Position numbers and translations under genes: made by a program. DNA of 64,000 nt from an uncultured Eubacteriales bacterium. GTDB taxonomy: Bacteria; Bacillota; Clostridia; Oscillospirales; Acutalibacteraceae. The stretch spans positions 11,108-75,107 of the forward strand of contig CAZTFS010000002.1 in assembly GCA_964613045.1 (NCBI GenBank), given 5' to 3'. How positions within the stretch are numbered: position 1 is the first letter of the stretch; every line of letters begins with the position of its first letter. The notes under the pieces were generated by a model, which saw only the letters and a program-made list of their open reading frames with translations, did not search any database and was not told the DNA's origin. Positions 122-35,671 of the stretch are shown one piece after another.

Positions 122-145
122 GTATTAAAACAGGAGGAATGCTGT

Positions 146-2227
146 ATGTACAGAACTCTATTTTGTAACGACATCTGTGACAAGCACATAGGTCAGACAG
201 TTCAGCTTGCGGGCTGGGTCGATGTTGTACGAGATCACGGCGGTGTTATCTTTGTTGATCTTCGTGACTACACAGGTGTTACTCAGGTTGTTATCCATAA
301 CGAGGAGCTTCTTAAAAATGTAAACCGTGAAACTGTTATTTCTGTAAGCGGTGTTGTTGAAAAACGTGATGATGAAACCGTTAACACGAAGATTGCAACA
401 GGTTATGTTGAATTGGTTGCAGATTCACTTCAGGTTCTCGGTAAATCTCAGAATATGCTTCCCTTTGAAGTAAGAAATTCAAGACTGAGCAAAGATGAGC
501 TCCGTCTTAAATACCGTTACCTTGACCTTCGTAATCCCAAGAACCATAACAACCTTGTTATGCGTTCAAAGATTATCAGACATCTTAGAAATAAGATGGA
601 AGACAAGGGCTTCCTTGATATGCAGACGCCTATCCTTACCGCATCATCACCCGAGGGAGCAAGAGACTTCCTTGTTCCCAGCCGTAAGCATCCCGGCAAG
701 TTCTATGCATTACCTCAGGCTCCTCAGCAGTTTAAACAGCTTCTTATGGTATCGGGCTTCGACAGATATTTCCAGGTGGCTCCCTGTTTCCGTGATGAAG
801 ATGCACGTGCTGACCGTTCACCCGGTGAATTCTATCAGCTCGACTTTGAAATGGCTTTCGCAACTCAAGAAGAAGTTCTTGATGTCTGTGAAGACGTTAT
901 CTACGATACATTCAAGACATTTTCGGATAAGAAAGTAACAGAAAAGCCTTTCCGCCGTATCACTTATGCCGATGCAATGATGACATACGGTTCGGATAAG
1001 CCCGATCTGAGAAATCCTCTCATAATATGCGATCTTACTGATTTCTTCGCTCAGGTCAATTTTCCCGCATTCAAGGGCAGACCTGTAAGAGGTATTGTTG
1101 CTGATTGTAAAGGAAAGTCAAAGAAATTCTTTGAAGATTCTCTTAAATATGCCACTTCCGCAGAAGTAGGTCTCGGCGGTCTCGGTTATATCACGCTTAA
1201 AGACGGTGTTTTTGCAGGTCCTATCGCAAAGTTCCTCAGTGAAGCTCAGAAGACTGAGATAACAGAGTTAACAGGTGTCAAAGAGGGCGAAACTCTCTTC
1301 TTCATCTGTGATGACAAGAAGAATGATACAGAGAAAAAAGCAGGTCTTATCCGTACATGGCTCGCAAGAAAAGAACAGCTTGACCTTATTCGTGATGATG
1401 CTTTTGAATTCTGTTTTGTTGTTGATTTCCCAATGTACGAGGATGATGAAGAAACCGGCGAAACGATCTTTACTCACAATCCGTTCTCTATGCCCCAAGG
1501 CGGTATGGAAGCTCTTATGACAAAAGATCCCACTGAGGTTCTTGCATATCAGTATGACCTTGTCTGTAACGGAATCGAGCTTGCATCGGGTGCTGTACGT
1601 AACCATGATATAGATATCATGAAAAAGGCATTCGAAATTGCAGGCTATGATGAAGCTGAACTTAAAAAGAGATTCAATGCACTTTATACTGCATTCCAGT
1701 ACGGAGCTCCTCCCCACGCAGGTATGGCACCCGGTATCGACCGTATGGTAATGCTTCTTACAGATGAAGAAAAGATTCTTGATGTTATCGCATTCCCTCT
1801 CAACGGCAATGCTCAGGATCTTCTCCTCGGTGCTCCCTCAGAAGTTACAAACCAGCAGCTCGAGGATGTTCATCTCTTAGGCTCAGGCAGTGCTCTTGCT
1901 CAGCGTCAGACTGCAAGCGGTTCAACAGGTTCAAGACAGTCTCAGGGCAAGCGTTCCACATTCTCAAACGCACAGCAGCTTAATCAGATATCCCTTACGG
2001 AAGATGAAGAAGCTGTTATGCAGAATATCTTCGCTGATATGAGTGAAAGTGAAAAGAAACTCGGAGCTTGTGACACGGAAAATGTTGAAGCAATGGTTCA
2101 TGTTATGGAAATGACAAATATCCTTCGTGACGATGTCCGCAAACAGCCCTTTACAAGAGAAAGTCTTCTTGAAGGTGCTCCCGAACGTAATGAAGACAGC
2201 TGGCAAGTACCCAGACTGGTAAAGTGA
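146..2227 (+). CDS. aspS: Aspartyl-tRNA synthetase (bacterial type, probably non-discriminating) fused in frame to a C-terminal GatC-like domain
   Basis: ORF 71-2227. Start moved to ATG 146 (AGGAGG at 132-137, 8-nt spacer) because the upstream codons lie inside the T-box terminator. AspRS motifs present: FYALPQAPQQFKQLLM, CFRDEDARADRSPGEF, GAPPHAGMAPGIDR, and a GAD-type insertion. The tail is GatC-like (next entry). Confidence 0.9.
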   Translation: MYRTLFCNDICDKHIGQTVQLAGWVDVVRDHGGVIFVDLRDYTGVTQVVIHNEELLKNVNRETVISVSGVVEKRDDETVNTKIATGYVELVADSLQVLGKSQNMLPFEVRNSRLSKDELRLKYRYLDLRNPKNHNNLVMRSKIIRHLRNKMEDKGFLDMQTPILTASSPEGARDFLVPSRKHPGKFYALPQAPQQFKQLLMVSGFDRYFQVAPCFRDEDARADRSPGEFYQLDFEMAFATQEEVLDVCEDVIYDTFKTFSDKKVTEKPFRRITYADAMMTYGSDKPDLRNPLIICDLTDFFAQVNFPAFKGRPVRGIVADCKGKSKKFFEDSLKYATSAEVGLGGLGYITLKDGVFAGPIAKFLSEAQKTEITELTGVKEGETLFFICDDKKNDTEKKAGLIRTWLARKEQLDLIRDDAFEFCFVVDFPMYEDDEETGETIFTHNPFSMPQGGMEALMTKDPTEVLAYQYDLVCNGIELASGAVRNHDIDIMKKAFEIAGYDEAELKKRFNALYTAFQYGAPPHAGMAPGIDRMVMLLTDEEKILDVIAFPLNGNAQDLLLGAPSEVTNQQLEDVHLLGSGSALAQRQTASGSTGSRQSQGKRSTFSNAQQLNQISLTEDEEAVMQNIFADMSESEKKLGACDTENVEAMVHVMEMTNILRDDVRKQPFTRESLLEGAPERNEDSWQVPRLVK
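1988..2224 (+). other. gatC: GatC-like domain (79 aa) at the C-terminus of the AspRS ORF, preceded by a 37-aa low-complexity linker (1877-1987)
   Basis: ISLTEDEEAVMQNIF...DTENVEAMVHVMEMTNILRDDV...ESLLEGAPERNEDSWQVPRLVK follows the GatC pattern (DTxxVEP...H...N.LReD...L..AP....f.VP.v). No stop codon separates it from AspRS. Confidence 0.7.
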
Positions 2228-2237
2228 GGTGTGCAGA

Positions 2238-3419
2238 ATGAAAAACTATGTAACTAAGTTGTTTGATAACGGTAATATTGCCGTTGATGATACAATTCTT
2301 GTGAAAGATTCTCAGACAGCGGCAGGTTCACGTATTATGGAGGGCTTCAAACCCCTGTTCAGTGCAGATGCTGTTGTTAAACTTAAAGAAAAAGGCTATA
2401 AAATATCCGGAAAAGCAAGTGTCGGTGAATTCGGACTTGATCTTGTCGGTGAATTCTCACACTATGCACCGCAGGAAGGTACTCTCAAAGGTGCATCGGC
2501 AGAGCTTGTTGCAAAGAGTGAAGTAAAGGCTGCCCTCGGTGTTGATATGAACGGTTCAACAAGACGTGCAGCTGCTCTTTCAGGCGTTGACTTTCTAAAA
2601 CCCACATACGGAACTGTTTCACGATACGGTATAATATCATGTGCCGCCTCAGGCGAGCAGCTCGGTGTTTACGCAAAGGATGCCGAAAATATTAAAGAGA
2701 TCATGGATGTCATTGCAGGTCACGACGACAAGGACGGTACAAGCCTTCCCGCAGAAAGCTATGATTATTCAATTACTGATGTACAGGGCAAGAAAGTCTG
2801 CATTATCAAGGAGCTTCTTGACAAAGCAGACGACGAAACAAAAGCAAAAGTAACTGCTTTTGCAGAAGCTCTTAATGCAAACGGTGTTACGGTTGAGACA
2901 ATCTCATGCGATCTGTTTGAGCTTGCAAACACTGCATGGCAGATTCTTATGTGTGCTGAAACATGTAACAACGTTTCCCGTTATGACGGTGTTAAATTCG
3001 GTCACAGAGCCGAAAAATACAGAAATATTGACGAGCTTTATGTAAACTCAAGAACAGAAGGCTTCAACTTCCTTACAAAGGCAGTTATTCTCTACGGTTC
3101 TGATGTTCTCTCAAAAAACAGATATAAAGACTGTTATGATAAATCTCTCAGAGTACGACGTGTCGTTGCAGACGGTATGGCAAAGCTTTTTGAAGGTTAT
3201 GACGCAGTGCTTACCCCCGTGTGCAGTAAAACTTCTTATGAAGCTTATGATATTCATGATGCATTCGGAAAAGTATTCGCTGAAAGCGTATTTACATCAG
3301 TGGCAAACCTTATCGGTATTCCTGCTCTTGTAAGCGGCGGTGTTCAGCTTATGGGCAAGCAGTTCAGTGAAAGCACGCTTCTCAGTCTTGCACACATTGT
3401 TGAAAGGAAAGGTGAATGA
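2238..3419 (+). CDS. gatA: GatA-like amidotransferase subunit A, short (393 aa) and divergent
   Basis: KPTYGTVSRYGIISCAAS, VKD (catalytic-Lys context) and a RYDGVKFG-type C-terminal region align with GatA. GAGGTG RBS at 2226-2231. Sits between the GatC-like tail and gatB, and its stop overlaps the gatB start region. Confidence 0.75.
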   Translation: MKNYVTKLFDNGNIAVDDTILVKDSQTAAGSRIMEGFKPLFSADAVVKLKEKGYKISGKASVGEFGLDLVGEFSHYAPQEGTLKGASAELVAKSEVKAALGVDMNGSTRRAAALSGVDFLKPTYGTVSRYGIISCAASGEQLGVYAKDAENIKEIMDVIAGHDDKDGTSLPAESYDYSITDVQGKKVCIIKELLDKADDETKAKVTAFAEALNANGVTVETISCDLFELANTAWQILMCAETCNNVSRYDGVKFGHRAEKYRNIDELYVNSRTEGFNFLTKAVILYGSDVLSKNRYKDCYDKSLRVRRVVADGMAKLFEGYDAVLTPVCSKTSYEAYDIHDAFGKVFAESVFTSVANLIGIPALVSGGVQLMGKQFSESTLLSLAHIVERKGE

Positions 3420-3421
3420 TT

Positions 3422-4840
3422 ATGAATTATGAACTCGTCATCGGCCTTGAAACTCATGTGGAGTTAAGTACCGAATCAAAAATATTCTGCTCATGCGGCG
3501 GTCATTCTGCAGCAAAAGAACCTAATGACTGTGTTTGTCCTGCTTGTTGCGGAATGCCCGGCATGCTTCCCGTAATGAATAAGAGAGTTGTTGAATTAGC
3601 TGTAACAGCAGGTCTTATGCTTAACTGCGAGATCAGCCGTTACACAACATTTGATAAGAAAAACTACTATTATCCCGATCTGCCCTGTGCTTATCAGATA
3701 ACACAGCTTAATCATCCCATCTGTACAAACGGTCTTGTTTCTCTCAAGACTTCTCAGGGTGTCCGTGATATCAGAATCAAGCAGATTCACATGGAAGAGG
3801 ATGCAGGTAAGCTTGTTCACGGCGGTAATTCATCTTTTGTTGACTTCAACCGTACCAGTGTTCCTCTTATTGAGATCGTTACACAGCCCGATTTTCGCAG
3901 TGCCGAAGAAGTAGTAACTTACCTTAACAAACTTAAGAATATGTTCCGTTCAGGCGGAATTTCAGAGTGTGAAGAGGGTGCAATGCGTTGTGACGTAAAC
4001 ATTTCTGTCCGTCCCGAAGGCAGTGAAGAATTCGGTGTCCGTACAGAGATAAAGAACATGAGCTCATTTGAGGCCATTGAAAAAGCTATAAAGTATGAAT
4101 CACAGCGTCATATTGATGCGCTTGAATTTGAAACAGAAGAGCTTGTACAGGAAACGAGAAGATTTGACGACGTTAGCGGCAAGACTTTTGCAATGAGAAA
4201 CAAGGAAACTGAGGCTGATTACCGCTATTTCCCCGATGCAAACCTTATGCCTATCATTATTGATGATGAATGGCTTGAAAAAATCAAGGCGGCAAAGCCC
4301 ACTGCTGTTGACGAAAAAGCTGAACAGTACAGAGAAGCAGGTATTTCCGATAAAGAAATCGATATGCTTCTTGCAAACAACAAGATTCTCAGACTTCTTG
4401 ATGACACGGTTGCTCTCGGCTGTAATATGAAAGATACGGCAGCATATATCCTCACTGACTGTATGGGTATTCTCCGTAAGGCAGGAAAAACGATCGGTGA
4501 GCTTGATATTACCGCAGAAGACCTTTCTGCTGTCATCAAAATGGTTACTGACGGCAAGATAAACAGAAATGCAGGTAAGAAAGTGCTTATCGCAATGATC
4601 GAAGACGGTGCAGACCCCGTGGAATACTGCAAGCAGAACGGTCTTGACAAGCAGGTTGATTCATCTGCAGTTGAAGGTATTGTTGATGCAGTTATAGCAA
4701 ATAATGCTCAGGCTGTAGAAGATTACAAAAACGGTAAGGTCAAGGCTATGCAGGCTCTCTTCGGTGCTTGCATGAAAGAACTCAAAGGTGCTGGTGACCC
4801 CACAGTCATCAAGACTCTTCTTGAAGAAAAACTTAAGTAA
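3422..4840 (+). CDS. gatB: Asp-tRNA(Asn)/Glu-tRNA(Gln) amidotransferase subunit B
   Basis: MNYELVIGLETHVEL, HMEEDAGK, and a YqeY-like C-terminal tail. An alternative ATG at 3416 overlaps the gatA stop (ATGA). Confidence 0.92.
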   Translation: MNYELVIGLETHVELSTESKIFCSCGGHSAAKEPNDCVCPACCGMPGMLPVMNKRVVELAVTAGLMLNCEISRYTTFDKKNYYYPDLPCAYQITQLNHPICTNGLVSLKTSQGVRDIRIKQIHMEEDAGKLVHGGNSSFVDFNRTSVPLIEIVTQPDFRSAEEVVTYLNKLKNMFRSGGISECEEGAMRCDVNISVRPEGSEEFGVRTEIKNMSSFEAIEKAIKYESQRHIDALEFETEELVQETRRFDDVSGKTFAMRNKETEADYRYFPDANLMPIIIDDEWLEKIKAAKPTAVDEKAEQYREAGISDKEIDMLLANNKILRLLDDTVALGCNMKDTAAYILTDCMGILRKAGKTIGELDITAEDLSAVIKMVTDGKINRNAGKKVLIAMIEDGADPVEYCKQNGLDKQVDSSAVEGIVDAVIANNAQAVEDYKNGKVKAMQALFGACMKELKGAGDPTVIKTLLEEKLK

Positions 4841-4881: not shown

Positions 4882-4895
4882 AAGGAATGATAAAA

Positions 4896-6074
4896 ATGAC
4901 TGAAAGACTTTTTGAAAAAGATGCTTATTGCAGAAGTTTCACTGCAGATGTACTTTCCTGTGAAGAAAAAGACGGGTTTTATTATGTCGTTCTAAATAAA
5001 ACTGCATTTTTCCCCGAAGGCGGAGGTCAGGCTCCGGACCAAGGCACAATTAACAGTGCAAATGTCCTTGATGTTCAGGAAAAAGACGGAATGGTTTATC
5101 ATAAAACAGATAAAGCCTTTCAAACGGGTGAAAAGGTGAAGTGTGAGCTTGACTGGAATTTGCGTTTTTCGAGAATGCAGAGCCATTCGGGGGAACATAT
5201 TGTATCAGGTATCGTGCATAGCCTTTTCGGCTATGACAATGTGGGCTTCCATATGAGTGAAAAAACTATGACCGTTGATTTCAGCGGACCTCTCACTGCT
5301 GAAGACATTGAAAAAGTTGAACTTGAATCAAACAAGGCGATTTACAAAAATGCACCCGTTACAGCATCTTATCCCACAAAAGAGGAACTTATAAATACAG
5401 ATTACAGAAGCAAAATCGAACCAAGAGACGGCATAAGACTTATCACAATTGAGGGTATCGACTGCTGTGCATGTTGTGCTCCGCATCCTGCATTTACAGG
5501 TGAAATCGGAATCATAAAAATAATCGATTTTTGTCCGCACAAAAAAGGAACAAGAATCGAAATGGTTGCGGGAATCAATGCTTTTTATGATTATTCGACA
5601 CTTCATTCATCAGCTAAGCAGGTTATGAATCTGCTTTCAGCAAAAAGAAACAGTATTGCCGATTTTGTTGAAAAACTTCAGGAAACTGCAAACTATCTCA
5701 AATCCGAAAACGGTAAGCTTTCAAGAAAACTTGCTCTCGCCGAACTTCAGACTGTAAACATCAACGGCTGTGCCTATTCAATTGGCAAGAATATGTCCTA
5801 TGATGACCTGAGAGCCTGTTCAAACAATCTAATTGAAAGCGGAATAAGAAAGTGCATTCTTCTTTCGGAAACAGAAGAAAACAGCTATATTTATGTCGTT
5901 AGCAGTTCTGAAAACGATGTCAGAACTATCGTTAGCTGCCTTAACAGCACTTTTAACGGTAAAGGCGGCGGAAGAGATAACTATGCTCAGGGCAAGCTTT
6001 CGGCATCGTCTGATGATGATCTGAAGATTTCTGTTGAAAAATTTTTCAACAATAAACAGATAATTGAATTCTGA
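4896..6074 (+). CDS. alaX: Alanyl-tRNA editing protein, AlaX-L type (AlaRS editing domain plus DHHA1-like C-terminus)
   Basis: HSGEHIVSG (HxxxH) and CCAPH (CxxxH) zinc motifs of the Thr/Ala-tRNA synthetase second additional domain. C-terminal GKGGGRDNYAQGK. AAGGA RBS lies 9 nt before ATG 4896. Confidence 0.8.
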   Translation: MTERLFEKDAYCRSFTADVLSCEEKDGFYYVVLNKTAFFPEGGGQAPDQGTINSANVLDVQEKDGMVYHKTDKAFQTGEKVKCELDWNLRFSRMQSHSGEHIVSGIVHSLFGYDNVGFHMSEKTMTVDFSGPLTAEDIEKVELESNKAIYKNAPVTASYPTKEELINTDYRSKIEPRDGIRLITIEGIDCCACCAPHPAFTGEIGIIKIIDFCPHKKGTRIEMVAGINAFYDYSTLHSSAKQVMNLLSAKRNSIADFVEKLQETANYLKSENGKLSRKLALAELQTVNINGCAYSIGKNMSYDDLRACSNNLIESGIRKCILLSETEENSYIYVVSSSENDVRTIVSCLNSTFNGKGGGRDNYAQGKLSASSDDDLKISVEKFFNNKQIIEF

Positions 6075-6124
6075 TAAAAACAGTGTTACAATAAAAATGC
6101 CAAGTAATAAAAAGAGGTAATATC

Positions 6125-12218: not shown

Positions 12219-13073
12219 TTATTTGAGTCTGTAAGTTCTTATAAAGGTTGAAACAATCTTGTTGTAATCTGAAATATGGAAAACTAATTCGCCGTTTTCA
12301 TCTGTTTCTGCACACAGCCCTTCGGTTTCTGTATCAAAACCTGTTGTGTTTCTGTCAAAGAGAAGCTTTACTTCGCCTGTTGCAAGGTCAACTTCGTAAA
12401 CAGTTTTGTTTTCTCCTTCGGGGTCGCAGTTGAGGTATGCTTTTCCGTCAAGGACATCGCCTGCCTGAACTCTCTGTAAGGTTTCTGAAAGCTCAACGGT
12501 GTGTGAAAGGCTCATATCGTCGATATTATATACAACAATTCTGTCAGCTTCATTGAACTGTGATGTGTAAAGATAGTTTTCATCTGTTGCACACCATGCG
12601 ATACCGTCTTTGAGATATTCCCAGTCAACAGCATAATATGTGCCTGTATACTCAAGTGTTTCAGCATCGTAGATAAGCACAAGAGGGTGTGTTTCAGGCT
12701 TATTTTCAACGGGAGCATAGATAATGCCGTTCTGAACGGAGATATCACCTATATGGTCATAATCCTGCTGTTTGAATTCAAGGGGGAGTGCATCAAGGTT
12801 TTCCTTGATAACTTCACCTGTTGACTTGTCAATTATGCCGAGACAGCCTAGCTTAATGCCTGCAAGTGAGCCTGATACATAGAAAAGGTCGTTTTCTTCT
12901 TCAATACCCTGACCGCAGAGAAATGAATCAATAAGTGAAAATCCGAATTCATTTATGATTTCTGCTTCTTCTGTTGCAGGGGGAGTGGGACAGATGAGTG
13001 ATGAAATCATCATTACAAGGGCTGTAAGCGGTGAAAGAACCACTTTAAGATAACTTAATATTGTACCAAACAT
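12219..13073 (-). CDS. Hypothetical exported protein (beta-propeller-like repeats)
   Basis: Hydrophobic N-terminus LSPLTALVMMISSLI. Repeating beta-strand-rich segments. AAGGAGG RBS overlaps the stop codon of the upstream gene. Confidence 0.6.
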   Translation of the reverse strand: MFGTILSYLKVVLSPLTALVMMISSLICPTPPATEEAEIINEFGFSLIDSFLCGQGIEEENDLFYVSGSLAGIKLGCLGIIDKSTGEVIKENLDALPLEFKQQDYDHIGDISVQNGIIYAPVENKPETHPLVLIYDAETLEYTGTYYAVDWEYLKDGIAWCATDENYLYTSQFNEADRIVVYNIDDMSLSHTVELSETLQRVQAGDVLDGKAYLNCDPEGENKTVYEVDLATGEVKLLFDRNTTGFDTETEGLCAETDENGELVFHISDYNKIVSTFIRTYRLK

Positions 13074-13086
13074 AAAAATTTCCTCC

Positions 13087-15264
13087 TTAATCTCCTAAAA
13101 GACCGTAATATCTGCCCATCCAGTAGGGAAGAAGATAGATGTAAGGCATTGCTGCTGTTGTTCCTTTTGCACCGTGAGCACCGGGGAGTGTAGATGTACG
13201 GTTAACGACTTTTGTATTTACCTCAATGAATTCTTCACAGCCGGAGTCGCAAATGAACTGATTACCGTCATAGTGAACAGGAACTCTTGCAGAATATTCA
13301 AGAGGGTATTTAAGCTGTGCCGGAATGCCCATGGGCTCTTGCTCCGTATCCCATACGATGTCTTTTCTGTGGCTGTTGTATATGGGGAATCTGATAAGAT
13401 CAAGATTCATTTCTGAAAGTGACTTTGCCGCATTTTCAATATCACAGCTGTTATTAGTAAGAGCACCGTATGTAATATTGAACCAGGGTGAACGTTCAAC
13501 ACGTTCATATTCCCAGTGATGAGTAAGCCCCATCTTGAAAATCTCTTTCTGAGCTTCATCTTCTGTATACACAAGCAGGGGATAGATATTAGTGAAGTCG
13601 AGCTGATCGTCGATATGAGCAACGTGACCGTCTTCACATTTGTACTGCATACAGTTCATTGCGTAATGATGCTTTTTAATGAGCATATCAAACACTTTGT
13701 TGTATTTTTCATCACCTGTTACATGGTACGTTGTCTTGAGGAATGAAAGTATCTCAAGTGAGTTTGTTCCTCTTTCGTAATACCATCTGTCATCATTGTT
13801 GAGAAGATCCGGCTCCCAGTTAGCCCATGTTGTGGGAATGCCGTCAACGTCGGTAAGATGGAAGTTGTGGTCGATAATGTGATCTGTAATGGTCTTGACG
13901 ACCTGTGCGATCTTCTTCTTTTCTTCTTCATCAGCAACAAGGTCATAATAGATGCCGTATGCATAATAATGACCTGTCATCTCATCACTTGAAGTTTCGC
14001 CGAGCCACTCGCAATCGGGATTTCCTTCACAAAAATGCCATTCTTCTCTGTTTCCTGTAGCAAAATTTTCCTCGTGAGAGTATCTTGTTGCTCTTGCGGT
14101 AAAGCCCGGTCTGCCTGTAACTTCTGTAAGCTTTATCATAGCTTCCACTGCACGCTTTGCATTTGACTTAGCTTTTTCGTCACCTGTTACTGCATAACGG
14201 AAGCACTGGCTTGCACAGTAAAGACCTGTGAAAAGACCGTCATTATCTGAATTCGGAAGCCAGCCTGAGTCCATATCTGCGTATTTACGAAGCTTTCTTG
14301 ATACATGGTAGCCTTCGTTTCTTACATAGTATTTGTCAGCCAGCTCGTCGAAATGCTTTGCCTTTTCCTCAAGTGTCATCATCTTTGCTGTGATAATGCT
14401 GATGCCTCTGGGGGTAACTGCAGCCATTGTTCCGTTGTCAGAAACTGTGATGGCAGTAACATTCGGATGCATGAGCCATACACCGTATGAAAAATAGGAG
14501 ATCTTACCGTCCGTAAGAGTGATTATTCCTGTTTTTGTTGCAAAATATTTCTTTCCGTCAGCAGCAAAGAACATATCATTTATTGAACCGTTGGGAACGG
14601 AATAAAAATCATTTCCGTTGAACCAATAGTTTCTGCCGTCGTAGATGTTGAGTCCTTCATCTGAGCCAACCCAGAGATGGCCGAGTGCATCAATTGCAAG
14701 ACAATTGATCTTTTTGCTCAGAGCTCCCGATATCTCGGGAAGAAGCTCTGCCCAATGACGGCGTTTGCCTTTCATTGACATAAGACCCGATGTTGCAGAA
14801 CCGACATAAACAGTTTCGTCATACTTAGCTTTGTTGTCAAGTGCTGCAAGACAAACTGTATCTTCGGGGAGGTCAACGATCTTAACTGCATCATTTCCGT
14901 CAAGACGGAAAAGCTCATTTTCGGTAATGAACCAGACTGACTTGTCAAGAGCAACAGACATATCAATGACAGGTGAGTTTAACTTTGCTATAATGTTGAG
15001 CTTACCTTTCTTTATTTCTGCAAGAGAATTGCCTGCTGCGGCGAAAAGTTTGCCGTCTTTAGCAAAAAGCTTAGAAACATTTGCATTGATTTTCTTCATT
15101 TTTCCGTCGTTGTATTCAATAATACAATCGGGTTGAGCAATGTAAAGAGTTTCACCTGCAAAAGCTACAGAAGTGACATTTTCGGCGTCAATGCCGTTTT
15201 CTGCGGTGATAAATGTTTTGTCATACTGTTTGAACTCACCGAAGTTAAGTGAATTTTTTTTCAT
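13087..15264 (-). CDS. Hypothetical 725-aa protein: N-terminal Reg_prop-like beta-propeller plus an unassigned helical C-terminal domain
   Basis: Propeller-type repeats (LWVGSDEGLNIYDG, KYFATKTGIITLTDG). The C-terminal half is rich in W/Y/H helices (GLYCASQCFRYAVTGDEKAK...). The start at 15264 makes an ATGA overlap with the upstream stop and has an AAGGAG RBS. Confidence 0.6.
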   Translation of the reverse strand: MKKNSLNFGEFKQYDKTFITAENGIDAENVTSVAFAGETLYIAQPDCIIEYNDGKMKKINANVSKLFAKDGKLFAAAGNSLAEIKKGKLNIIAKLNSPVIDMSVALDKSVWFITENELFRLDGNDAVKIVDLPEDTVCLAALDNKAKYDETVYVGSATSGLMSMKGKRRHWAELLPEISGALSKKINCLAIDALGHLWVGSDEGLNIYDGRNYWFNGNDFYSVPNGSINDMFFAADGKKYFATKTGIITLTDGKISYFSYGVWLMHPNVTAITVSDNGTMAAVTPRGISIITAKMMTLEEKAKHFDELADKYYVRNEGYHVSRKLRKYADMDSGWLPNSDNDGLFTGLYCASQCFRYAVTGDEKAKSNAKRAVEAMIKLTEVTGRPGFTARATRYSHEENFATGNREEWHFCEGNPDCEWLGETSSDEMTGHYYAYGIYYDLVADEEEKKKIAQVVKTITDHIIDHNFHLTDVDGIPTTWANWEPDLLNNDDRWYYERGTNSLEILSFLKTTYHVTGDEKYNKVFDMLIKKHHYAMNCMQYKCEDGHVAHIDDQLDFTNIYPLLVYTEDEAQKEIFKMGLTHHWEYERVERSPWFNITYGALTNNSCDIENAAKSLSEMNLDLIRFPIYNSHRKDIVWDTEQEPMGIPAQLKYPLEYSARVPVHYDGNQFICDSGCEEFIEVNTKVVNRTSTLPGAHGAKGTTAAMPYIYLLPYWMGRYYGLLGD

Positions 15265-16202
15265 TGGTAATCTCCTTGTAATGTATTGTTTATCCACTTG
15301 AGAATGTCATCATAAACATTCTGATAAGCATCCTCATTAAGTATTTCGTGACGAAGCCCGGGATAAAGCTTCATGTCGGCTTGTATGCCGTTTTCTTCAA
15401 ATTTATTGCAAGCATTAAGGACACCTCTGCCGAAAAGACCGATAGGATCTTTACCGCCTGAGATAAGAAATACGGGTAGTGTGGGCGTAATCATTGCATA
15501 ACATTCGTCTGAAGAAGCTTTGAAAAGCATTTTTGCAACGATCATTGAGCTTGCATTTGTAATGGGAAAATCAAAATACGGATCAGAATCTGCCTCAGCA
15601 CGATTTTCAATACTTACGGATAGCCATGCATTTACATCATCTTCTTTGAAATATCTTGAAGTAAGCTTTCCGAGTATTTCGCTTCCCGTGGATGAATATG
15701 TATCTTTACCTATCATGTCACTGAACGGATATACATATTCCTGAAAAACTGAGAGTTTACTGTTGATATGAGTCGTTCCGCAGAGGATAAGACCTGCAAG
15801 CTCTTCACCGAAGTTTGATGCATATATCCTTGCGAGAAAAGATCCCATGCTGTGTCCCAGTATATAATAGGGAAGAGCAGGATATTTCTTTTCCATGATA
15901 TTGTGCAGTACATGCATGTCATCAACCATACGTATATCGGAATCGGGTTCGCCGAAGTTGCCGAGTTCTGCTTGTGACGGAGCCGACAATCCGTGACCGA
16001 TGTGATCGTTACCGCAGACAACAAATCCGTTTGAAGCCATAAAACATGCGAAACGCTCGTATCTTCCTATATGCTCGGTAAGTCCGTGAGCTATCTGGAG
16101 AACTGCCCATGGCTCTGTTGTGTCGTCTTTCCATATCAGAACACGGCTCATTGTCTTGCCGTCTGTTGATTTGAAGAATGCTTGAGATTTAACTATAGCC
16201 AT
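15261..16202 (-). CDS. Alpha/beta hydrolase (lysophospholipase / monoacylglycerol-lipase-like)
   Basis: HGLTEHIGRYERF, DHIGHGLS, GHSMGS nucleophile elbow. GAGGAG RBS lies 7 nt before ATG 16202. An alternative ATG at 16217 overlaps the GH13 stop as ATGA. Confidence 0.75.
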   Translation of the reverse strand: MAIVKSQAFFKSTDGKTMSRVLIWKDDTTEPWAVLQIAHGLTEHIGRYERFACFMASNGFVVCGNDHIGHGLSAPSQAELGNFGEPDSDIRMVDDMHVLHNIMEKKYPALPYYILGHSMGSFLARIYASNFGEELAGLILCGTTHINSKLSVFQEYVYPFSDMIGKDTYSSTGSEILGKLTSRYFKEDDVNAWLSVSIENRAEADSDPYFDFPITNASSMIVAKMLFKASSDECYAMITPTLPVFLISGGKDPIGLFGRGVLNACNKFEENGIQADMKLYPGLRHEILNEDAYQNVYDDILKWINNTLQGDYQ

Positions 16203-18794: not shown

Positions 18795-20246
18795 CTATAT
18801 GATTAGTGTTAAGATGTTTATTGTAAGACAGCAAAGAATGAAAAATCCGTGTACCGTTCGTTCACTTTTGCTGATTGTGATCTTTCCTGATTTAAGCAGC
18901 TTCAGTATAAAGAATACTGTTTCGTAGAAGAATGTGTACATCAGCACCGTCATTCTTATGTTTATGGCTTCGCCTTTTATTGCTATCAGACCGAATAGCA
19001 GAAACTCGGGAAGGAAGAAAATGAGCTTCCATGTTATGTTTCCCCTTGTATCATTAAAACATTTTTCTGCAACTTCCTGACAAAGAACAAGCATAATGAC
19101 AGGGAATGCAACTGCTGCTGCAACGGTGTATGAGCCTATGAAGCAAAAAAGCATCGGTAAGATCGAATAAACTGCAAACTCAGCTTTTTCGCACAGCATT
19201 TTATAACGTCTGAAATGCTCATTATCTTCTGCTCCGGCATAAATATTTGCTTCATATTGTTCCTTTGTTATCAGCTTCAATTTAAGCAGTTTTCTGTTGT
19301 ATTTTCTGTTGACTGCAGGTGCAATAAAATACTGTAACGTGTCCGCAATAAGTATTATTCCGTAAATGATAAGAAGAGCGTAGGAAACATTTTCGGATAT
19401 GACAGACTGAAAACCGTAGGTATCAATGATTTTCAGTTTTTCCGCAAAAAGATCTTTTGTCAGTATAAATAATACTGCAATCCCCATTCCTGCATAAGCT
19501 CCGAGCGAACATTCCATGACTTTCCATGAGTCTATGAAACCGTTCTCGTTTGCTTTTCCGAATGTGTGTTTACCCTTTTTATTAGGGTATTTTGTGTAAA
19601 TCTGAAATATCTGTGCCAATACCCAGCTTACACCGCCTATAAGGAATGTTCCCGATGCTGTTACAAGTGAAGACCAATCTTTGAGCACTGCCGAAAAGAC
19701 AAGTATCTCGATCCACATACCCATCAATCCGCCCCATGTCTCATGTCTTGTTACAGAGAAGTATATCCTCGGGAATTTATTATCATCAGGATTGTAAGGT
19801 TTATTAAGAAGAAGATAAAATATGACAGCAAAAACAGGCAGAAGAGTAAAAAACAGAATGATCTGTAAAAGAGTCATCTTGCCTGCTGTTACTGTGATGA
19901 AAAGTGAAACATAGCCTCCGAAAAGACCGAACCAGACACCGCCTTTTACAAAAAGAGCAATAAGTCCCTTCTTCATGTTTGTCGGCGGTTTTGAATCCAT
20001 TGACAGCCCGAGAGTTTCACCGTAAGTCATGTTTCCGCCGCAGTACATTGCCAGTGCACCTACACCTGCAATCAGCCACGGATTTTCAGCAAGTGTGCAA
20101 GAACCGGAAAACACAGAAATTATAAAACCTAAGAAAGCACCCGGCAGCATTGCACCTTTTTCACCGCCGATGATCGTTCCTCTCATACCCCATGCATACG
20201 AAACGGCAACGCCTGCAAAAAAAATAAAGAATAGATTGTTCAGCAT
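18795..20246 (-). CDS. Polytopic membrane protein, family not recognised
   Basis: About 12 hydrophobic segments across 483 aa. Sits 10 nt after the GNAT gene and 11 nt before the HAD gene. Confidence 0.65.
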   Translation of the reverse strand: MLNNLFFIFFAGVAVSYAWGMRGTIIGGEKGAMLPGAFLGFIISVFSGSCTLAENPWLIAGVGALAMYCGGNMTYGETLGLSMDSKPPTNMKKGLIALFVKGGVWFGLFGGYVSLFITVTAGKMTLLQIILFFTLLPVFAVIFYLLLNKPYNPDDNKFPRIYFSVTRHETWGGLMGMWIEILVFSAVLKDWSSLVTASGTFLIGGVSWVLAQIFQIYTKYPNKKGKHTFGKANENGFIDSWKVMECSLGAYAGMGIAVLFILTKDLFAEKLKIIDTYGFQSVISENVSYALLIIYGIILIADTLQYFIAPAVNRKYNRKLLKLKLITKEQYEANIYAGAEDNEHFRRYKMLCEKAEFAVYSILPMLFCFIGSYTVAAAVAFPVIMLVLCQEVAEKCFNDTRGNITWKLIFFLPEFLLFGLIAIKGEAINIRMTVLMYTFFYETVFFILKLLKSGKITISKSERTVHGFFILCCLTINILTLII

Positions 20247-31971: not shown

Positions 31972-33567
31972 TTATTCAAGTTTTGCAGCTATTCTGAGGA
32001 TTTTTCTTGCATCTGCCGCCGTAATTCTTCCGTCACCTGTTACATCTGCCGCTATTTTTTCTGTGTAAGTCGGTGAATAAAGATTTGCTGATATTCTCAG
32101 TGCAATTCGTGCATCTGATGCCGTGACACTGCTGTCAGCATTTATATCTCCGATAAGCATGTCTGCTGAGGGTATTTTTTCGGTGTTGTATTCATTATCA
32201 CTTATGAATCTGGGGTAGTCGATATAACAGATGTTAAGATCTGTGTATCTTGATTCGATTCCGCTTACACCGCCGTGCTCCGTATACTGCCACATGCCGT
32301 ATTCGCCGCTGTAGCTGCATTTGTCATGCCAATCAGCTATCCACAGTGCATGATTTGAAAAAAGTGCATCGTTGTAATAGTCGCTTGCCCATGATGTGCT
32401 GCAGTAAACTCCCGAATAGATATTTACTTTATCCATTTCCGAAAGAAACGTATATGTAATGTTGAAAATTGCAGTTTTACCGCATCTCTCAGTTACTGCA
32501 TCTTCCATATCTATGTATACCGGCATATCAAATTCAAGATCGTATTTGTTAATAGTGTCAATTACAAACTGAGCTTCAGCCTTTGCTTCATCGGTTGTTG
32601 TTGCCGTAGAATAGAAGTAGCAGCCCACGTGAAGCCCCTGTTCCTTCGCACCTTTGTAATATTCGAGAAATCTTTCATCAATAAGTATTTCTCTTGTCAG
32701 TGAGCCTCTCAGACCGATTCTCATTATTACGGCTTTTATGTCACCCGATGCCACCTTTGACCAGTCGATATTGCCTTGCCATTTTGAAACATCAATAACA
32801 TTCCAATTTACTGCATATTCACTTGTGCCGGCATGTGAATCGTCATAAAGAACAGCATAGTCCATGCTGATCCAACCGTTGTAACCGTTGTATGTAATAT
32901 ATCCCCATGCTCCGTCACTGCTGAAGTCTGTTATGTCGACTATTGTTCCGATAGGGATCTTTGTAAGAACCGTACAGCTTGTATTGGGTTCTTTTCTCAA
33001 GTTGAGAAAAGAAGCTGTGGTCATGTGTTTTCCTGTTGTATAATTTGAAACATAACTGTAATCCGGAGTTGCGTATGCTATGATCTTTTCCATTCCGATG
33101 GTGTAAAGCTTCTTTTTTACGGTGTTGTCATTATCGCAGATAACGGCTGTAACGAACTGAGTGTCCGTTGAGATAACAATTGCACAATTTTCCGCTGTAA
33201 TGCCGTCATCTCCGATAAAAAGAATGTCGCCCCTTTCGGGGATGTAATCAGGATTTGCATTTATCCTCATGCCTTCAGTGAAGAAATCATATAAATTCGA
33301 TACTGTTTCTGTTGTCGGAATAACTTCATTCGGGATTTTTGCTTCATCGGCACACCAGATGATAAAATTCAGACTTGCGTTTACATTATTACCGTATTTT
33401 TCTGATTCGTCAGCAGTACAACCAACCTGAGTAAGTGATATTTCGGCAATATCATCTGCGTAAGACCCCGTATTCTTATGAGTATTCTCAAATGCCGCAG
33501 ATGTCATTACAGTGAACGCTGACAGGAGCACAATAACGGATATAATTATGCTTAGATATCTTTTCAT
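31972..33567 (-). CDS. Secreted modular cell-wall hydrolase: N-terminal CHAP/NlpC-like region, SH3b, GH25 muramidase, C-terminal dockerin
   Basis: Signal peptide. SH3b-like LNLRKEPNTSCTVLTKIPIGTIVDI...GWISMDY. GH25 motif VIDVSKWQGNIDWSKV...VIMRIG...GCYFYS. Dockerin at the C-terminus. Confidence 0.8.
   Translation of the reverse strand: MKRYLSIIISVIVLLSAFTVMTSAAFENTHKNTGSYADDIAEISLTQVGCTADESEKYGNNVNASLNFIIWCADEAKIPNEVIPTTETVSNLYDFFTEGMRINANPDYIPERGDILFIGDDGITAENCAIVISTDTQFVTAVICDNDNTVKKKLYTIGMEKIIAYATPDYSYVSNYTTGKHMTTASFLNLRKEPNTSCTVLTKIPIGTIVDITDFSSDGAWGYITYNGYNGWISMDYAVLYDDSHAGTSEYAVNWNVIDVSKWQGNIDWSKVASGDIKAVIMRIGLRGSLTREILIDERFLEYYKGAKEQGLHVGCYFYSTATTTDEAKAEAQFVIDTINKYDLEFDMPVYIDMEDAVTERCGKTAIFNITYTFLSEMDKVNIYSGVYCSTSWASDYYNDALFSNHALWIADWHDKCSYSGEYGMWQYTEHGGVSGIESRYTDLNICYIDYPRFISDNEYNTEKIPSADMLIGDINADSSVTASDARIALRISANLYSPTYTEKIAADVTGDGRITAADARKILRIAAKLE
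31975..32151 (-). other. Dockerin module (two F-hand Ca-binding repeats)
   Basis: GDINADSSVTASDARIALRISANL ... ADVTGDGRITAADARKILRIAAKL. Confidence 0.75.
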
Positions 33568-34384: not shown

Positions 34385-35671
34385 TTATTGTTTGTTGCTT
34401 TCTACTTTTACAGGTATACCTTGCTTGATAAGGAAACGGAAAAACTCACGTTCAATATCTGTATTTGTATACATGTTTGCGAAAGATACCGCCATAGTAT
34501 TTCCCACTGTGCCTGCACCGACTCTTGCACCGTTAAGTCTGCCGGGACTGGGCATGAGGATATAGCTGTCCACATGTTCAAGCATCTCGGGAGGGATTCC
34601 TACAACACCTACATTTGTAAAAACAGATGTTGTTGTTTTTTCAGCACCGCACGTAAACACAAGACCTACTGCAAAATCTTTTATTGCAATCGGAATAAAT
34701 CTCATGATGGGATTTCTTTCAATTCCTAAATTTGAAGCAAACATTGCACTCAGATGCTTTGCGTTGTTTGTAAGTCTGAGACTCAATGACAGATGCTTAA
34801 GTACTTCGTCAAATGTGTATTCACCCCATGTCGGGTCGATTCTGATCTGATAGTTGACTGAAAAATTTCTCAGAGTTTTTGATTCAAACTGATTTCTGCA
34901 GTTTACGGGAATCTGCATAACAACTTCCTTTTGTTTTATGTTTTCTCTTCTCTGAAACTGCATGTGTATCAACATAAGTGCAGAGGACAGATATTCGGTT
35001 ATCGTTACACCTTTTTCTTTTGCCTTTGCTTTAAGTATATCAACGGGAATATAGCCGGTCGTGATGATTGATGTATGTTTTGGCATTTTTTCACCTATAC
35101 GGTGATACGTCTTAAACTGGGGCAGACGCTCTTTTGCTGTTTTTGATGCATATTTTACAAACGAATCCTCAATTTCCTCATCTTTCGGATTTTCATTTAT
35201 GTCATATACCATTCCTGTGCAAGGAATGTCGTATCCTTTCAGTCTGAGATATTCTGCAACTACGGTACAAAGGAAGACAGTTGCACCGAAGCCGTCTGTA
35301 AGTGCATGAAATATCTCAATTGATATTCTGTTTTTATAGTAAAAGAATCTGAACATATAGCGGTTGTTTTCTTTGTGATTAAGTCGCAGACAGGGATTGT
35401 TTGCGTCGGGCAGAACAACCGGATCTTCCGGATTCTTTTCAATGTAATGCCAGAACAGTCCGTTTCGTAAACGTACAGCCATGGTCGGAAAACGGGGGAG
35501 ACATTTCTTAACAGCCTTGAAAAGTATATCAGGATCGACCTCTTCTTTTAAATTAAGAGATGCTCTTATCATGTTTGACCATGTTTTTGTATTCTGTCCG
35601 GGAAACACAGTGCCTGCATTATCAAGCTTAAACCATGTTTTGTTTTTGATATTTTTATTTATCTTTTTCAT
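34385..35671 (-). CDS. Condensation/acyltransferase-superfamily protein with an HxxxDG motif (alcohol-acetyltransferase/PapA5-like)
   Basis: FHALTDGFGA active-site-type motif and N-terminal WFKLDNAGTVFP. Its start overlaps the ispG stop (TAATG). Confidence 0.55.
   Translation of the reverse strand: MKKINKNIKNKTWFKLDNAGTVFPGQNTKTWSNMIRASLNLKEEVDPDILFKAVKKCLPRFPTMAVRLRNGLFWHYIEKNPEDPVVLPDANNPCLRLNHKENNRYMFRFFYYKNRISIEIFHALTDGFGATVFLCTVVAEYLRLKGYDIPCTGMVYDINENPKDEEIEDSFVKYASKTAKERLPQFKTYHRIGEKMPKHTSIITTGYIPVDILKAKAKEKGVTITEYLSSALMLIHMQFQRRENIKQKEVVMQIPVNCRNQFESKTLRNFSVNYQIRIDPTWGEYTFDEVLKHLSLSLRLTNNAKHLSAMFASNLGIERNPIMRFIPIAIKDFAVGLVFTCGAEKTTTSVFTNVGVVGIPPEMLEHVDSYILMPSPGRLNGARVGAGTVGNTMAVSFANMYTNTDIEREFFRFLIKQGIPVKVESNKQ

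Follow-up and report, generated by a model that had tools for sequence, protein, structure and literature searches.

An in-frame AspRS–GatC fusion gene in a putative asparagine T-box operon with a triad-less GatA, from a gut clade of Clostridia

The aspS–gatC Fusion Gene and Its Operon

The DNA analyzed here is a stretch of 64,000 nucleotides (nt) from an uncultured Eubacteriales bacterium of the Acutalibacteraceae (NCBI GenBank assembly GCA_964613045.1, contig CAZTFS010000002.1, positions 11,108 to 75,107 of the forward strand), hereafter referred to as the window. Close to its start, the genes for aspartyl-tRNA synthetase (AspRS, aspS) and for GatC, a subunit of the tRNA-dependent amidotransferase (AdT) GatCAB, are joined in one open reading frame (ORF) of 693 amino acids (aa) plus stop, located at 146–2227 on the forward strand and followed by a gatA-like gene and gatB. 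The ORF begins with ATG at position 146 and ends with TGA at 2225–2227, and a Shine-Dalgarno sequence (AGGAGG), read from the sequence and conserved across loci, stands at 132–137 (+). A mechanical ORF list places the start further upstream, at TTG 71. This start was rejected because the added stretch overlaps the terminator of a T-box leader (described below) and because the ATG start, with the sequence MYRT, is conserved in the orthologues.

The AspRS moiety comprises residues 1–581 (146–1888, +), as delimited by NF001750, Pfam, and alignment to unfused AspRS. Residues 1–577 match the bacterial-type model NF001750 with 744 bits (cut-off 443) and TIGR00459 with 611 bits (cut-off 374), and the Pfam domains include an OB anticodon-binding domain (residues 19–98), the class II core tRNA-synt_2 (117–553), and part of a GAD insertion (approximately 338–393). 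An earlier note on this DNA had described one 693-aa frame at 146–2227 whose residues 1–577 are a complete bacterial-type AspRS, and the start, the stop, the upstream Shine-Dalgarno sequence, and the profile searches bear out both statements.

The C-terminal tail is a complete GatC domain of about 93 aa (residues 601–693; 1946–2224, +), identified by TIGR00135, PF02686, and alignment to free-standing GatC. PF02686 matches residues 617–688 with 41.2 bits in the whole protein and 46.4 bits in the tail alone (cut-off 23), while TIGR00135 gives 47.8 and 53.0 bits, respectively (cut-off 47.1), and residues 605–692 correspond to model positions 5–92 of 93. Free-standing GatC proteins from Oscillibacter and Oscillospiraceae, 93–94 aa in length, share 58–68% identity with the tail. 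Because the N-termini of these proteins align from their first residues with 'KRSTFSNAQQLNQ' of the window, the GatC domain is placed at residues ~601–693, starting at nt 1946. At the other boundary, the AspRS C-terminus of unfused relatives, ...QQLLDANIRIRE followed by the stop, aligns with ...QQLEDVHLLGSG of the window and thus ends four residues past residue 577. The true linker therefore spans residues ~582–600 (1889–1945, +; SALAQRQTASGSTGSRQSQ) and is about 19 aa long, or 23 aa with residue 578 as its first. This segment has a high content of Ser, Gly, Gln, Ala, and Thr, shows indels of 1–2 aa between species, and is close in length to the 63-nt spacer between aspS and gatC in an unfused operon (L088, described below). 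The earlier note had correctly recognized GatC at the C-terminus but had underestimated it as 79 aa from nt 1988, behind a linker of 37 aa that the two alignments shorten to ~19–23 aa.

The ATG of the gatA-like gene stands at 2238, 10 nt past the fusion stop, and gatB (3416–4840) overlaps this gene by 4 nt. The ORFs and domain searches agree with the earlier description of an operon without a free-standing gatC. The fusion gene is a genuine in-frame AspRS–linker–GatC and the sole supplier of GatC in this operon.

Conservation of the Fusion

A protein search among 5.8 billion proteins yielded 120 best matches from NCBI, ENA, JGI, and Logan assemblies. All of them (120/120) are 690–741 aa long, carry the GatC Pfam domain, and are 86–94% identical to the window protein. 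A scan of GTDB with one genome per species, using residues 480–693 as the query, gave at least 568 confirmed relatives. The best 80 of these share 80–90% identity, 78 of them across query residues 1–214 and two across 1–208, and are named Acutalibacteraceae, Candidatus Fimenecus, Congzhengia, or unclassified Clostridia metagenome-assembled genomes (MAGs). The fused GTDB relatives derive from goat, sheep, deer, buffalo, and human gut. Among the loci fetched for comparison (cited by L numbers), 71 of 71 complete genes besides the window encode a fusion of 690–693 aa. The conservation of the fusion in relatives, which the earlier note had named as a check, is thus borne out by both the best 80 GTDB species genomes and the 71 complete genes. 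The only fetched locus with a broken fusion ORF is L043 (JAZNGX010000139.1, around 2551–3930), where the frame stops after 455 aa at '...HNPFSMPQGGMD'. A frameshift, a pseudogene, or faulty assembly could account for the interruption.

Compared pairwise with the window, the orthologues have nearly saturated synonymous sites (median dS 1.2–1.6) and an intact frame, and therefore the fusion frame has been kept through a long divergence. The ratio of nonsynonymous to synonymous divergence (dN/dS) against orthologues is 0.04 for AspRS, 0.10 for GatC, and 0.40 for the linker (residues 578–600, with a mean column identity of 0.65). Judged by these ratios, the GatC part of the fusion is under purifying selection. 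The junction also includes well-conserved parts, namely HLLG[SN]G[SN]ALAQR and GKRSTFSNAQQLNQ. The linker has no in-frame ATG, GTG, or TTG in 48 of 71 loci, the window included, and a linker start codon preceded by a Shine-Dalgarno-like motif occurs in only 7 of 71. As the start signals of gatC are gone in the fused clade, the fusion is the only source of GatC from the operon.

Entries of 69–137 aa described as free-standing GatC (72–83% identity) were considered as evidence against conservation of the fusion and rejected, as the entries checked are either contig-edge fragments or internal calls in intact fusion ORFs (L004 4240–6321 and L005 4168–6354). The public annotation of the two MAGs concerned (GCA_036549705.1 and GCA_036298405.1) contains an internal 'GatC' of 106 or 117 aa at L004 6001–6321 and L005 6001–6354 and leaves the AspRS part without a gene call, and other annotations name the fusion plain 'aspartate--tRNA ligase'. 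The fusion is hidden in annotations because pipelines give it one or the other of these treatments, which is an annotation problem in its own right.

A Short GatA without the Catalytic Triad

The gatA-like gene (2238–3419, +) encodes a protein of 393 aa with an amidase fold (Pfam Amidase, 185 bits; TIGR00132, 267.7 bits), referred to here as the short GatA. The TIGR00132 match falls short of its cut-off (481.1) and covers the model only from position 60 onward. Compared with approximately 485 aa for GatA, about 60 N-terminal residues are missing. The protein was aligned with high posterior probability to the GatA of Staphylococcus aureus (2DF4_A) and Aquifex (3H0L_A). In S. aureus, the Ser-cisSer-Lys triad consists of Lys79, Ser154, and Ser178, with Ser178 as the nucleophile (PMC2330236). 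In the window, Lys79 (IAVKD) is replaced by Asp17 (IAVDD), cis-Ser154 is replaced by Leu83 in a GGSSGGS motif that reads GTLKGAS, and the position of Ser178 is occupied by Ser107; the stretch GSDTGGSIRQPA of the reference GatA reads GVDMNGSTRRAA. The same replacements prevail across 79 loci, with Asp at the Lys79 position in 76 and Leu or Ile at the Ser154 position in 78, while the Ser178 position varies (Ala in 44, Ser in 29, Thr in 4, and Gly in 2).

Since the Ser-cisSer-Lys triad is lost, the short GatA would be unable to hydrolyze glutamine by the amidase-signature mechanism. Its dN/dS of 0.12 points to purifying selection, and the most likely role, as judged from the sequences, is that of a glutaminase-dead scaffold or structural subunit. 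No report of a naturally triad-less GatA was found in the literature searched. Short GatA proteins (390–398 aa) are encoded in both fused and unfused operons, including L001 8088–9269, L088 5293–6480, L090 2819–4015, and L086 1007–1696. The triad is also lost in the unfused sister operons described below, as well as in a fused lineage at 55% identity, and because it is missing in the unfused sisters too, the loss predates the fusion. Compared with an Oscillibacter genome that has both types, the short GatA of the window is 32% identical to the canonical GatA of that genome, in which all three motifs are kept, versus 62% to its short GatA.

GatB, in turn, is canonical. The gene (3416–4840, +) encodes 474 aa that match NF004012 with 569 bits (cut-off 338) and contain the Pfam domains GatB_N and GatB_Yqey. 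The motifs GLETHVEL, HMEEDAGK, PLIEIVT, and DYRYFPD align with GatB of Aquifex and Thermotoga, and the dN/dS is 0.07.

The T-Box Leader

The window begins with the 3' part of a T-box leader (1–89, +), whose 5' end is cut by the window edge (Rfam RF00230, 34.6 bits, E = 1.6e-6, 5'-truncated). The conserved T-box sequence AAUGCGGGUGGCACCGCGGG (44–63, +) was read from the sequence, as was an intrinsic terminator (81–122, +) with the stem GUCCCGGGAAUAU / AUAUUCCCCGGGAC followed by a U-tract, which is conserved in the leader alignment. A search of the whole window with Rfam at the gathering threshold returned nothing, and the T-box was recovered in E-value mode; it was missed at the threshold because it is cut by the window edge and is atypical. 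In L001 (5710–5940), where the orthologous leader is complete, the score is 46.6 bits (E = 4e-9) and likewise does not reach the gathering score of 93.

The specifier lies upstream of window position 1 and was read from orthologous leaders. Across 56 distinct leaders, a TTGACA-17-TATAAT promoter is conserved, and 54 contain AAC followed by a purine (GGG-AAC-A in 48, GGC-AAC-A in 4, and GGG-AAC-G in 2); the search pattern missed the other two. The five nt after AAC pair with the 5' end of the transcript in a 5-bp helix, one pair of which is G-C in 27 leaders and A-U in 21. Since T-box leaders present their specifier as a codon with a purine after it, set directly against a helix, the specifier is read as AAC (Asn). 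The UGGC bulge of the T-box fits pairing with a G73 discriminator, and a leader with GGGAAC also precedes unfused operons. The Stem I region is non-canonical, as the transcript starts approximately 7 nt after the –10 box and the usual 5' strand with the K-turn and S-turn is missing. Read in this way, the operon is an Asn-tRNA(Asn) module controlled by an Asn T-box.

The leaders also contain a second covarying hairpin of 6 bp (e.g., L001 5753–5830) with a conserved 14-nt loop, UCACCGACUGAAAG, and the GAC of this loop is kept even in distant unfused operons. GAC (Asp) was considered as the specifier and rejected because it is followed by U and one leader has GGC instead, whereas AAC has the purine and the covarying basal helix.

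A comparable operon is that of Clostridium acetobutylicum (Saad et al., JBC 2012 and PNAS 2013), in which a T-box responding to tRNA(Asn) controls AspRS together with one set of GatCAB, as PMC4206432 states with reference to the 2012 paper. As in the window, the AspRS and amidotransferase genes stand together and are switched on by a T-box that reads tRNA(Asn). Here, in contrast, aspS and gatC are one gene, GatA lacks the catalytic triad and the N-terminus, and the leader has a non-canonical Stem I and scores under the Rfam gathering score. The specifier loop of the C. acetobutylicum T-box reportedly reads GAAC, and this context of overlapping Glu and Asn codons recurs in most of the leaders here.

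Origin of the Fusion and Similar Architectures

Unfused sister operons were reached via free-standing GatC at 58–68% identity. In a Clostridia MAG (L088/L089), aspS encodes 576 aa and has its own stop codon; a 63-nt spacer with the sequence AGGAGG separates it from gatC (93 aa), after which come a short gatA (395 aa) and gatB. In Oscillibacter sp. GCA_017446225.1 (L090/L091), a spacer of 19 nt lies between aspS and gatC (94 aa), the gatA that follows is again short (398 aa), and gatB closes the operon, directly after which lies a second, canonical gatC–gatA–gatB whose 493-aa GatA has an intact triad (L090 5472–7810 and L091 4685–7023). The AspRS of the window is 74% identical over 577 residues to the unfused 576-aa AspRS of L088, and the gene order, the T-box, and the short GatA of the sister operons are those of the fused operon. 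In the simplest history, aspS would have lost its stop codon, and translation would have run on through a spacer of some 60 nt. An ancestral aspS–gatC–short gatA–gatB operon, still unfused in sister Oscillospirales, would have lost both this stop codon and the gatC ribosome-binding site, and the spacer would have become a flexible linker of about 20 aa.

The domain order AspRS–GatC has been catalogued as NCBIfam NF009460 / PRK12820, 'bifunctional aspartyl-tRNA synthetase/aspartyl/glutamyl-tRNA amidotransferase subunit C'. Residues 5–664 of the window protein align to model positions 24–691 of 723, but the score of 460 bits against a cut-off of 1379 places it outside that equivalog and in a different lineage. 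When residues 480–693 were searched exhaustively with HMMER against 1.84 billion cluster representatives, the top 150 matches included few further fusions, namely P0242 (55% identity, with a different linker) and P0383 (38%), and both of these lineages are also far under the NF009460 cut-off. In the P0383 lineage, about 90 of 120 clusters (at 90% identity) among the matches listed join tRNA-synt_2 and GatC, at 44–99% identity, and the source names include Aristaeellaceae, Eubacteriales, and Lachnospiraceae. The operon of this lineage in L087 encodes a canonical GatA of 486 aa with the triad intact. As the unfused genes of L088 and L090 are much closer to the window than P0383 is, the simplest explanation is that the window and P0383 fusions are independent events. 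L087 also contains a gene (5001–6092) that joins the N-terminus (about 120 residues) of a succinate dehydrogenase/fumarate reductase flavoprotein to the last ~140 residues of AspRS and GatC. This gene is probably due to a chimeric metagenome contig or a rearrangement, and the normal order of GAD, core, and GatC is seen in relatives such as P0391.

The earlier note knew of no characterized AspRS–GatC fusion. This holds for experiments, as no experimental paper on a natural AspRS–GatC fusion of either lineage was found in the literature searched, key subscription papers aside; it does not hold for the architecture, which is already catalogued and recurrent in Clostridia, with a second, distant lineage, and for which characterization is missing in that literature. 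What goes beyond the described systems that we found is the combination of an Asn T-box operon, a GatC that exists only as part of a synthetase, and a glutaminase-dead GatA that is conserved in a large clade from the gut.

A Possible Covalent Asn-Transamidosome

Transamidosomes are a textbook case of substrate channeling that protects the genetic code. In the Asn-transamidosomes of Thermus thermophilus (3KFU), Pseudomonas aeruginosa (4WJ3), and Helicobacter pylori (PMC3367201), a non-discriminating AspRS, tRNA(Asn), and GatCAB cooperate without covalent bonds, and Asp-tRNA(Asn) is not released. The AspRS of P. aeruginosa and H. pylori is of the bacterial type with a GAD domain, as in the window. 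These complexes depend on tRNA, that of H. pylori is dynamic, and their GatA subunits are active glutaminases, whereas in the window the link would, to judge from the genes, be covalent through GatC and the GatA would be inactive.

The best PDB matches of the AspRS anticodon-binding domain are mycobacterial and H. pylori Asp/Asn ligases (4RMF, 5W25, and 5GRO). The motif RDHGGVIF agrees with the RDHGGV common to Asp/Asn ligases in the PDB, while Escherichia coli has RDLGS. Work on the P. aeruginosa AspRS reportedly found that the His of this motif matters for the recognition of tRNA(Asn). Together with the linkage to gatB and the Asn T-box, the motif is an indirect sign that the enzyme is of the non-discriminating type.

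GatC wraps the GatA–GatB interface as an unstructured belt, and both the folding of GatA and complex formation require it (PMC2330236; PMC4027206). Because the operon's only GatC is supplied by the fusion, GatA and GatB would have to assemble on the synthetase. We propose that the operon, consisting of the Asn T-box, the aspS–gatC fusion, the short gatA, and gatB, is dedicated to the synthesis of Asn-tRNA(Asn). Uncharged tRNA(Asn) would stabilize the T-box antiterminator and turn the operon on. The product would be a dimeric AspRS of the non-discriminating type with a full GatC flexibly tethered to each subunit, and each subunit would nucleate one pair of short GatA and GatB. As AspRS is a dimer with one such pair per subunit, this would yield a constitutive 2:2:2 Asn-transamidosome, which is the ratio given by the chain counts of the P. 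aeruginosa complex (AspRS:GatA of 1:1 in PDB 4WJ3). Asp-tRNA(Asn) would pass from the synthetase to GatB without release, and GatB, in which the kinase/transamidase motifs are kept, would amidate it while the short GatA plays a structural role. Bacterial-type Asn-transamidosomes are dynamic and less stable, as in H. pylori (PMC3367201), and therefore it is plausible that the tether keeps its partners at a higher local concentration.

In the least certain step, the amide nitrogen would come from free ammonia, which is plentiful in the rumen and hindgut. That an AdT can transamidate with NH4Cl instead of glutamine has been documented, and impairing the glutaminase of yeast GatFAB increased this activity (PMC4027206). 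Taken as a whole, the tethered Asn module appears probable to us. That it runs on ammonia seems to us slightly less likely than not. About as tentative is the full picture of a covalent Asn-transamidosome without glutamine hydrolysis, in which GatA would be a pseudoenzyme scaffold, GatC would reside in the synthetase, GatB would use free ammonia as an adaptation to the gut, and the whole would be an Asn-dedicated paralogue beside a canonical GatCAB, as the tandem operons of Oscillibacter suggest.

The proposal of the earlier note that the synthetase is tethered to the amidotransferase through GatC stands in that GatC is part of the AspRS gene; the partner, however, is not a canonical GatCAB, as the short GatA is without Lys79 and cis-Ser154. 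Because these catalytic residues are lost, channeling to GatCAB cannot include glutamine hydrolysis by this GatA. The tether may also fix both stoichiometry and channeling, as that proposal held.

Appendages to GatC and fusions of AdT genes have precedents. The yeast mitochondrial GatF of GatFAB is a GatC-like subunit with a large N-terminal extension, and extensions of the belt are thus tolerated (PMC4027206); unlike in the fusion, the appendage is a scaffold peptide for GatA rather than a synthetase, and the yeast GatA is active. A laboratory GatC–GatA fusion in Mycobacterium smegmatis arose, as here, by loss of a stop codon joining adjacent AdT genes, but it lies at the C-terminus of GatC and impairs fidelity (PMC7541841). 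The GlnRS–YqeY chimera of Deinococcus joins a synthetase with an AdT-derived domain that acts only in cis, although the appendage there is a tRNA-binding domain and not an assembly subunit (PMC1865053).

Several points weigh against the proposed complex. Its formation and the intact 78-kDa polypeptide are deduced from the covalent GatC, and the non-discriminating specificity from a motif. An AlphaFold2 model of the 693-aa fusion from a 25-sequence alignment was poor (mean predicted local distance difference test score, pLDDT, of 49.8 and predicted template modeling score, pTM, of 0.37), because the close relatives give too shallow an alignment, and it was unusable for judging the reach of the ~20-residue linker in a 4WJ3-like assembly. 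Elsewhere in the genome, a second GatC, a canonical GatCAB as in Oscillibacter, an asparaginyl-tRNA synthetase (AsnRS), or a second AspRS may exist and would alter the physiological reading. Ammonia as the nitrogen source beside a dead GatA is hypothetical, and the fusion may be selectively neutral.

The last of these points can be developed into an explanation that accepts the physical tether and disputes only its selective value. The fusion would then be a frozen accident, in which a neutral loss of the aspS stop codon became irreversible after decay of the gatC ribosome-binding site and the complex works like its unfused version. In its favor, the components, T-box, and dead GatA are shared with the unfused sister operons, and the linker evolves fast (dN/dS 0.40) and approximates the ancestral spacer in length. 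Most fused loci also lack the Shine-Dalgarno sequence and start codon of gatC, and this lack would keep the fusion from reverting. The fusion has been retained, on the other hand, in at least 80 species at near-saturated synonymous divergence, with the two junction parts well conserved. The reappearance of the architecture in a distant lineage may mean that such fusions form easily, but recurrence in independent lineages may equally indicate an advantage. On balance, we regard a frozen accident as unlikely. An artefact, in which a stop codon or frameshift between aspS and gatC was missed in sequencing or assembly, is practically negligible, since the same frame occurs in hundreds of independent assemblies from several sources and in 71 of 72 genes from species-level genomes.

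Two further alternatives deny either the tether or the enzyme. Free GatC might be made after all, by internal initiation or by proteolysis of the exposed, low-complexity linker, leaving an ordinary AspRS and GatC, and in some MAGs the NCBI pipeline does place a 'GatC' ORF of 69, 106, or 117 aa internally. These calls fall within intact 693-aa ORFs, however; the linkers of the window and 47 other loci offer no in-frame start, a start with a Shine-Dalgarno-like motif is as rare as noted above, and initiation at the first conserved Met would drop about 23 N-terminal residues of GatC, all of which makes this route very improbable. Scarcely more credible is a module that is no amidotransferase at all and instead sequesters or proof-reads Asp-tRNA(Asn) or has a regulatory function, with amidation left to a separate GatCAB or with Asn-tRNA(Asn) made by AsnRS. 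The loss of the GatA triad, the canonical gatCAB adjoining the homologous operon in Oscillibacter, and a trans-editing-type gene after gatB (see below) would fit such a role. Against it, the catalytic motifs of GatB are intact and its score exceeds the equivalog cut-off by a wide margin, purifying selection acts on all three AdT-type components, a T-box responding to tRNA(Asn) suits a module that makes Asn-tRNA(Asn), and AdTs can use ammonia directly (PMC4027206).

The tethered Asn module, if correct, would be of practical use. Complexes with bacterial-type AspRS are transient and hard to study, and a natural covalent version in at least 80 gut species would give a stable complex for structural and kinetic work, for which the unfused sister operons would act as built-in controls. 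The clade-wide loss of the GatA triad under purifying selection raises the question of what GatA contributes besides ammonia and suggests an amidotransferase that is tRNA-dependent yet may use free ammonia, an enzyme of which no description was found in the literature searched.

Downstream Genes and Other Features of the Window

Directly downstream of gatB is an AlaX-like trans-editing gene (4887–6074, +), recognized by the C-terminal part of Pfam tRNA-synt_2c, tRNA_SAD, and DHHA1, which may belong to the same transcription unit as the operon. An AlaX-like gene also follows gatB in L001 (10745–11908). In the distant fused lineage, a YbaK/ProX-type tRNA_edit gene occupies the same place (L087 9025–9498), and editing factors may be linked to AspRS–GatC operons.

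A Pfam scan of 30 of the 47 other window ORFs of at least 120 aa found no AsnRS, AsnA/AsnB, second AspRS, or second gatCAB, but turned up housekeeping and glycoside-hydrolase genes. Four ORFs on the reverse strand are without a Pfam match at E <= 1e-5, namely 13087–15297 (736 aa), 12219–13073 (284 aa), 18795–20246 (483 aa), and 34385–35671 (428 aa). The window also encodes a dockerin-bearing glycoside hydrolase family 25 (GH25) lysozyme with an SH3 domain (31972–33567, –), and a related genome encodes a protein that combines the carbohydrate-binding modules CBM25/CBM26 with a dockerin (L005 806–3859). Organisms of this clade seem to use cohesin–dockerin surface assemblies of the amylosome or cellulosome type.

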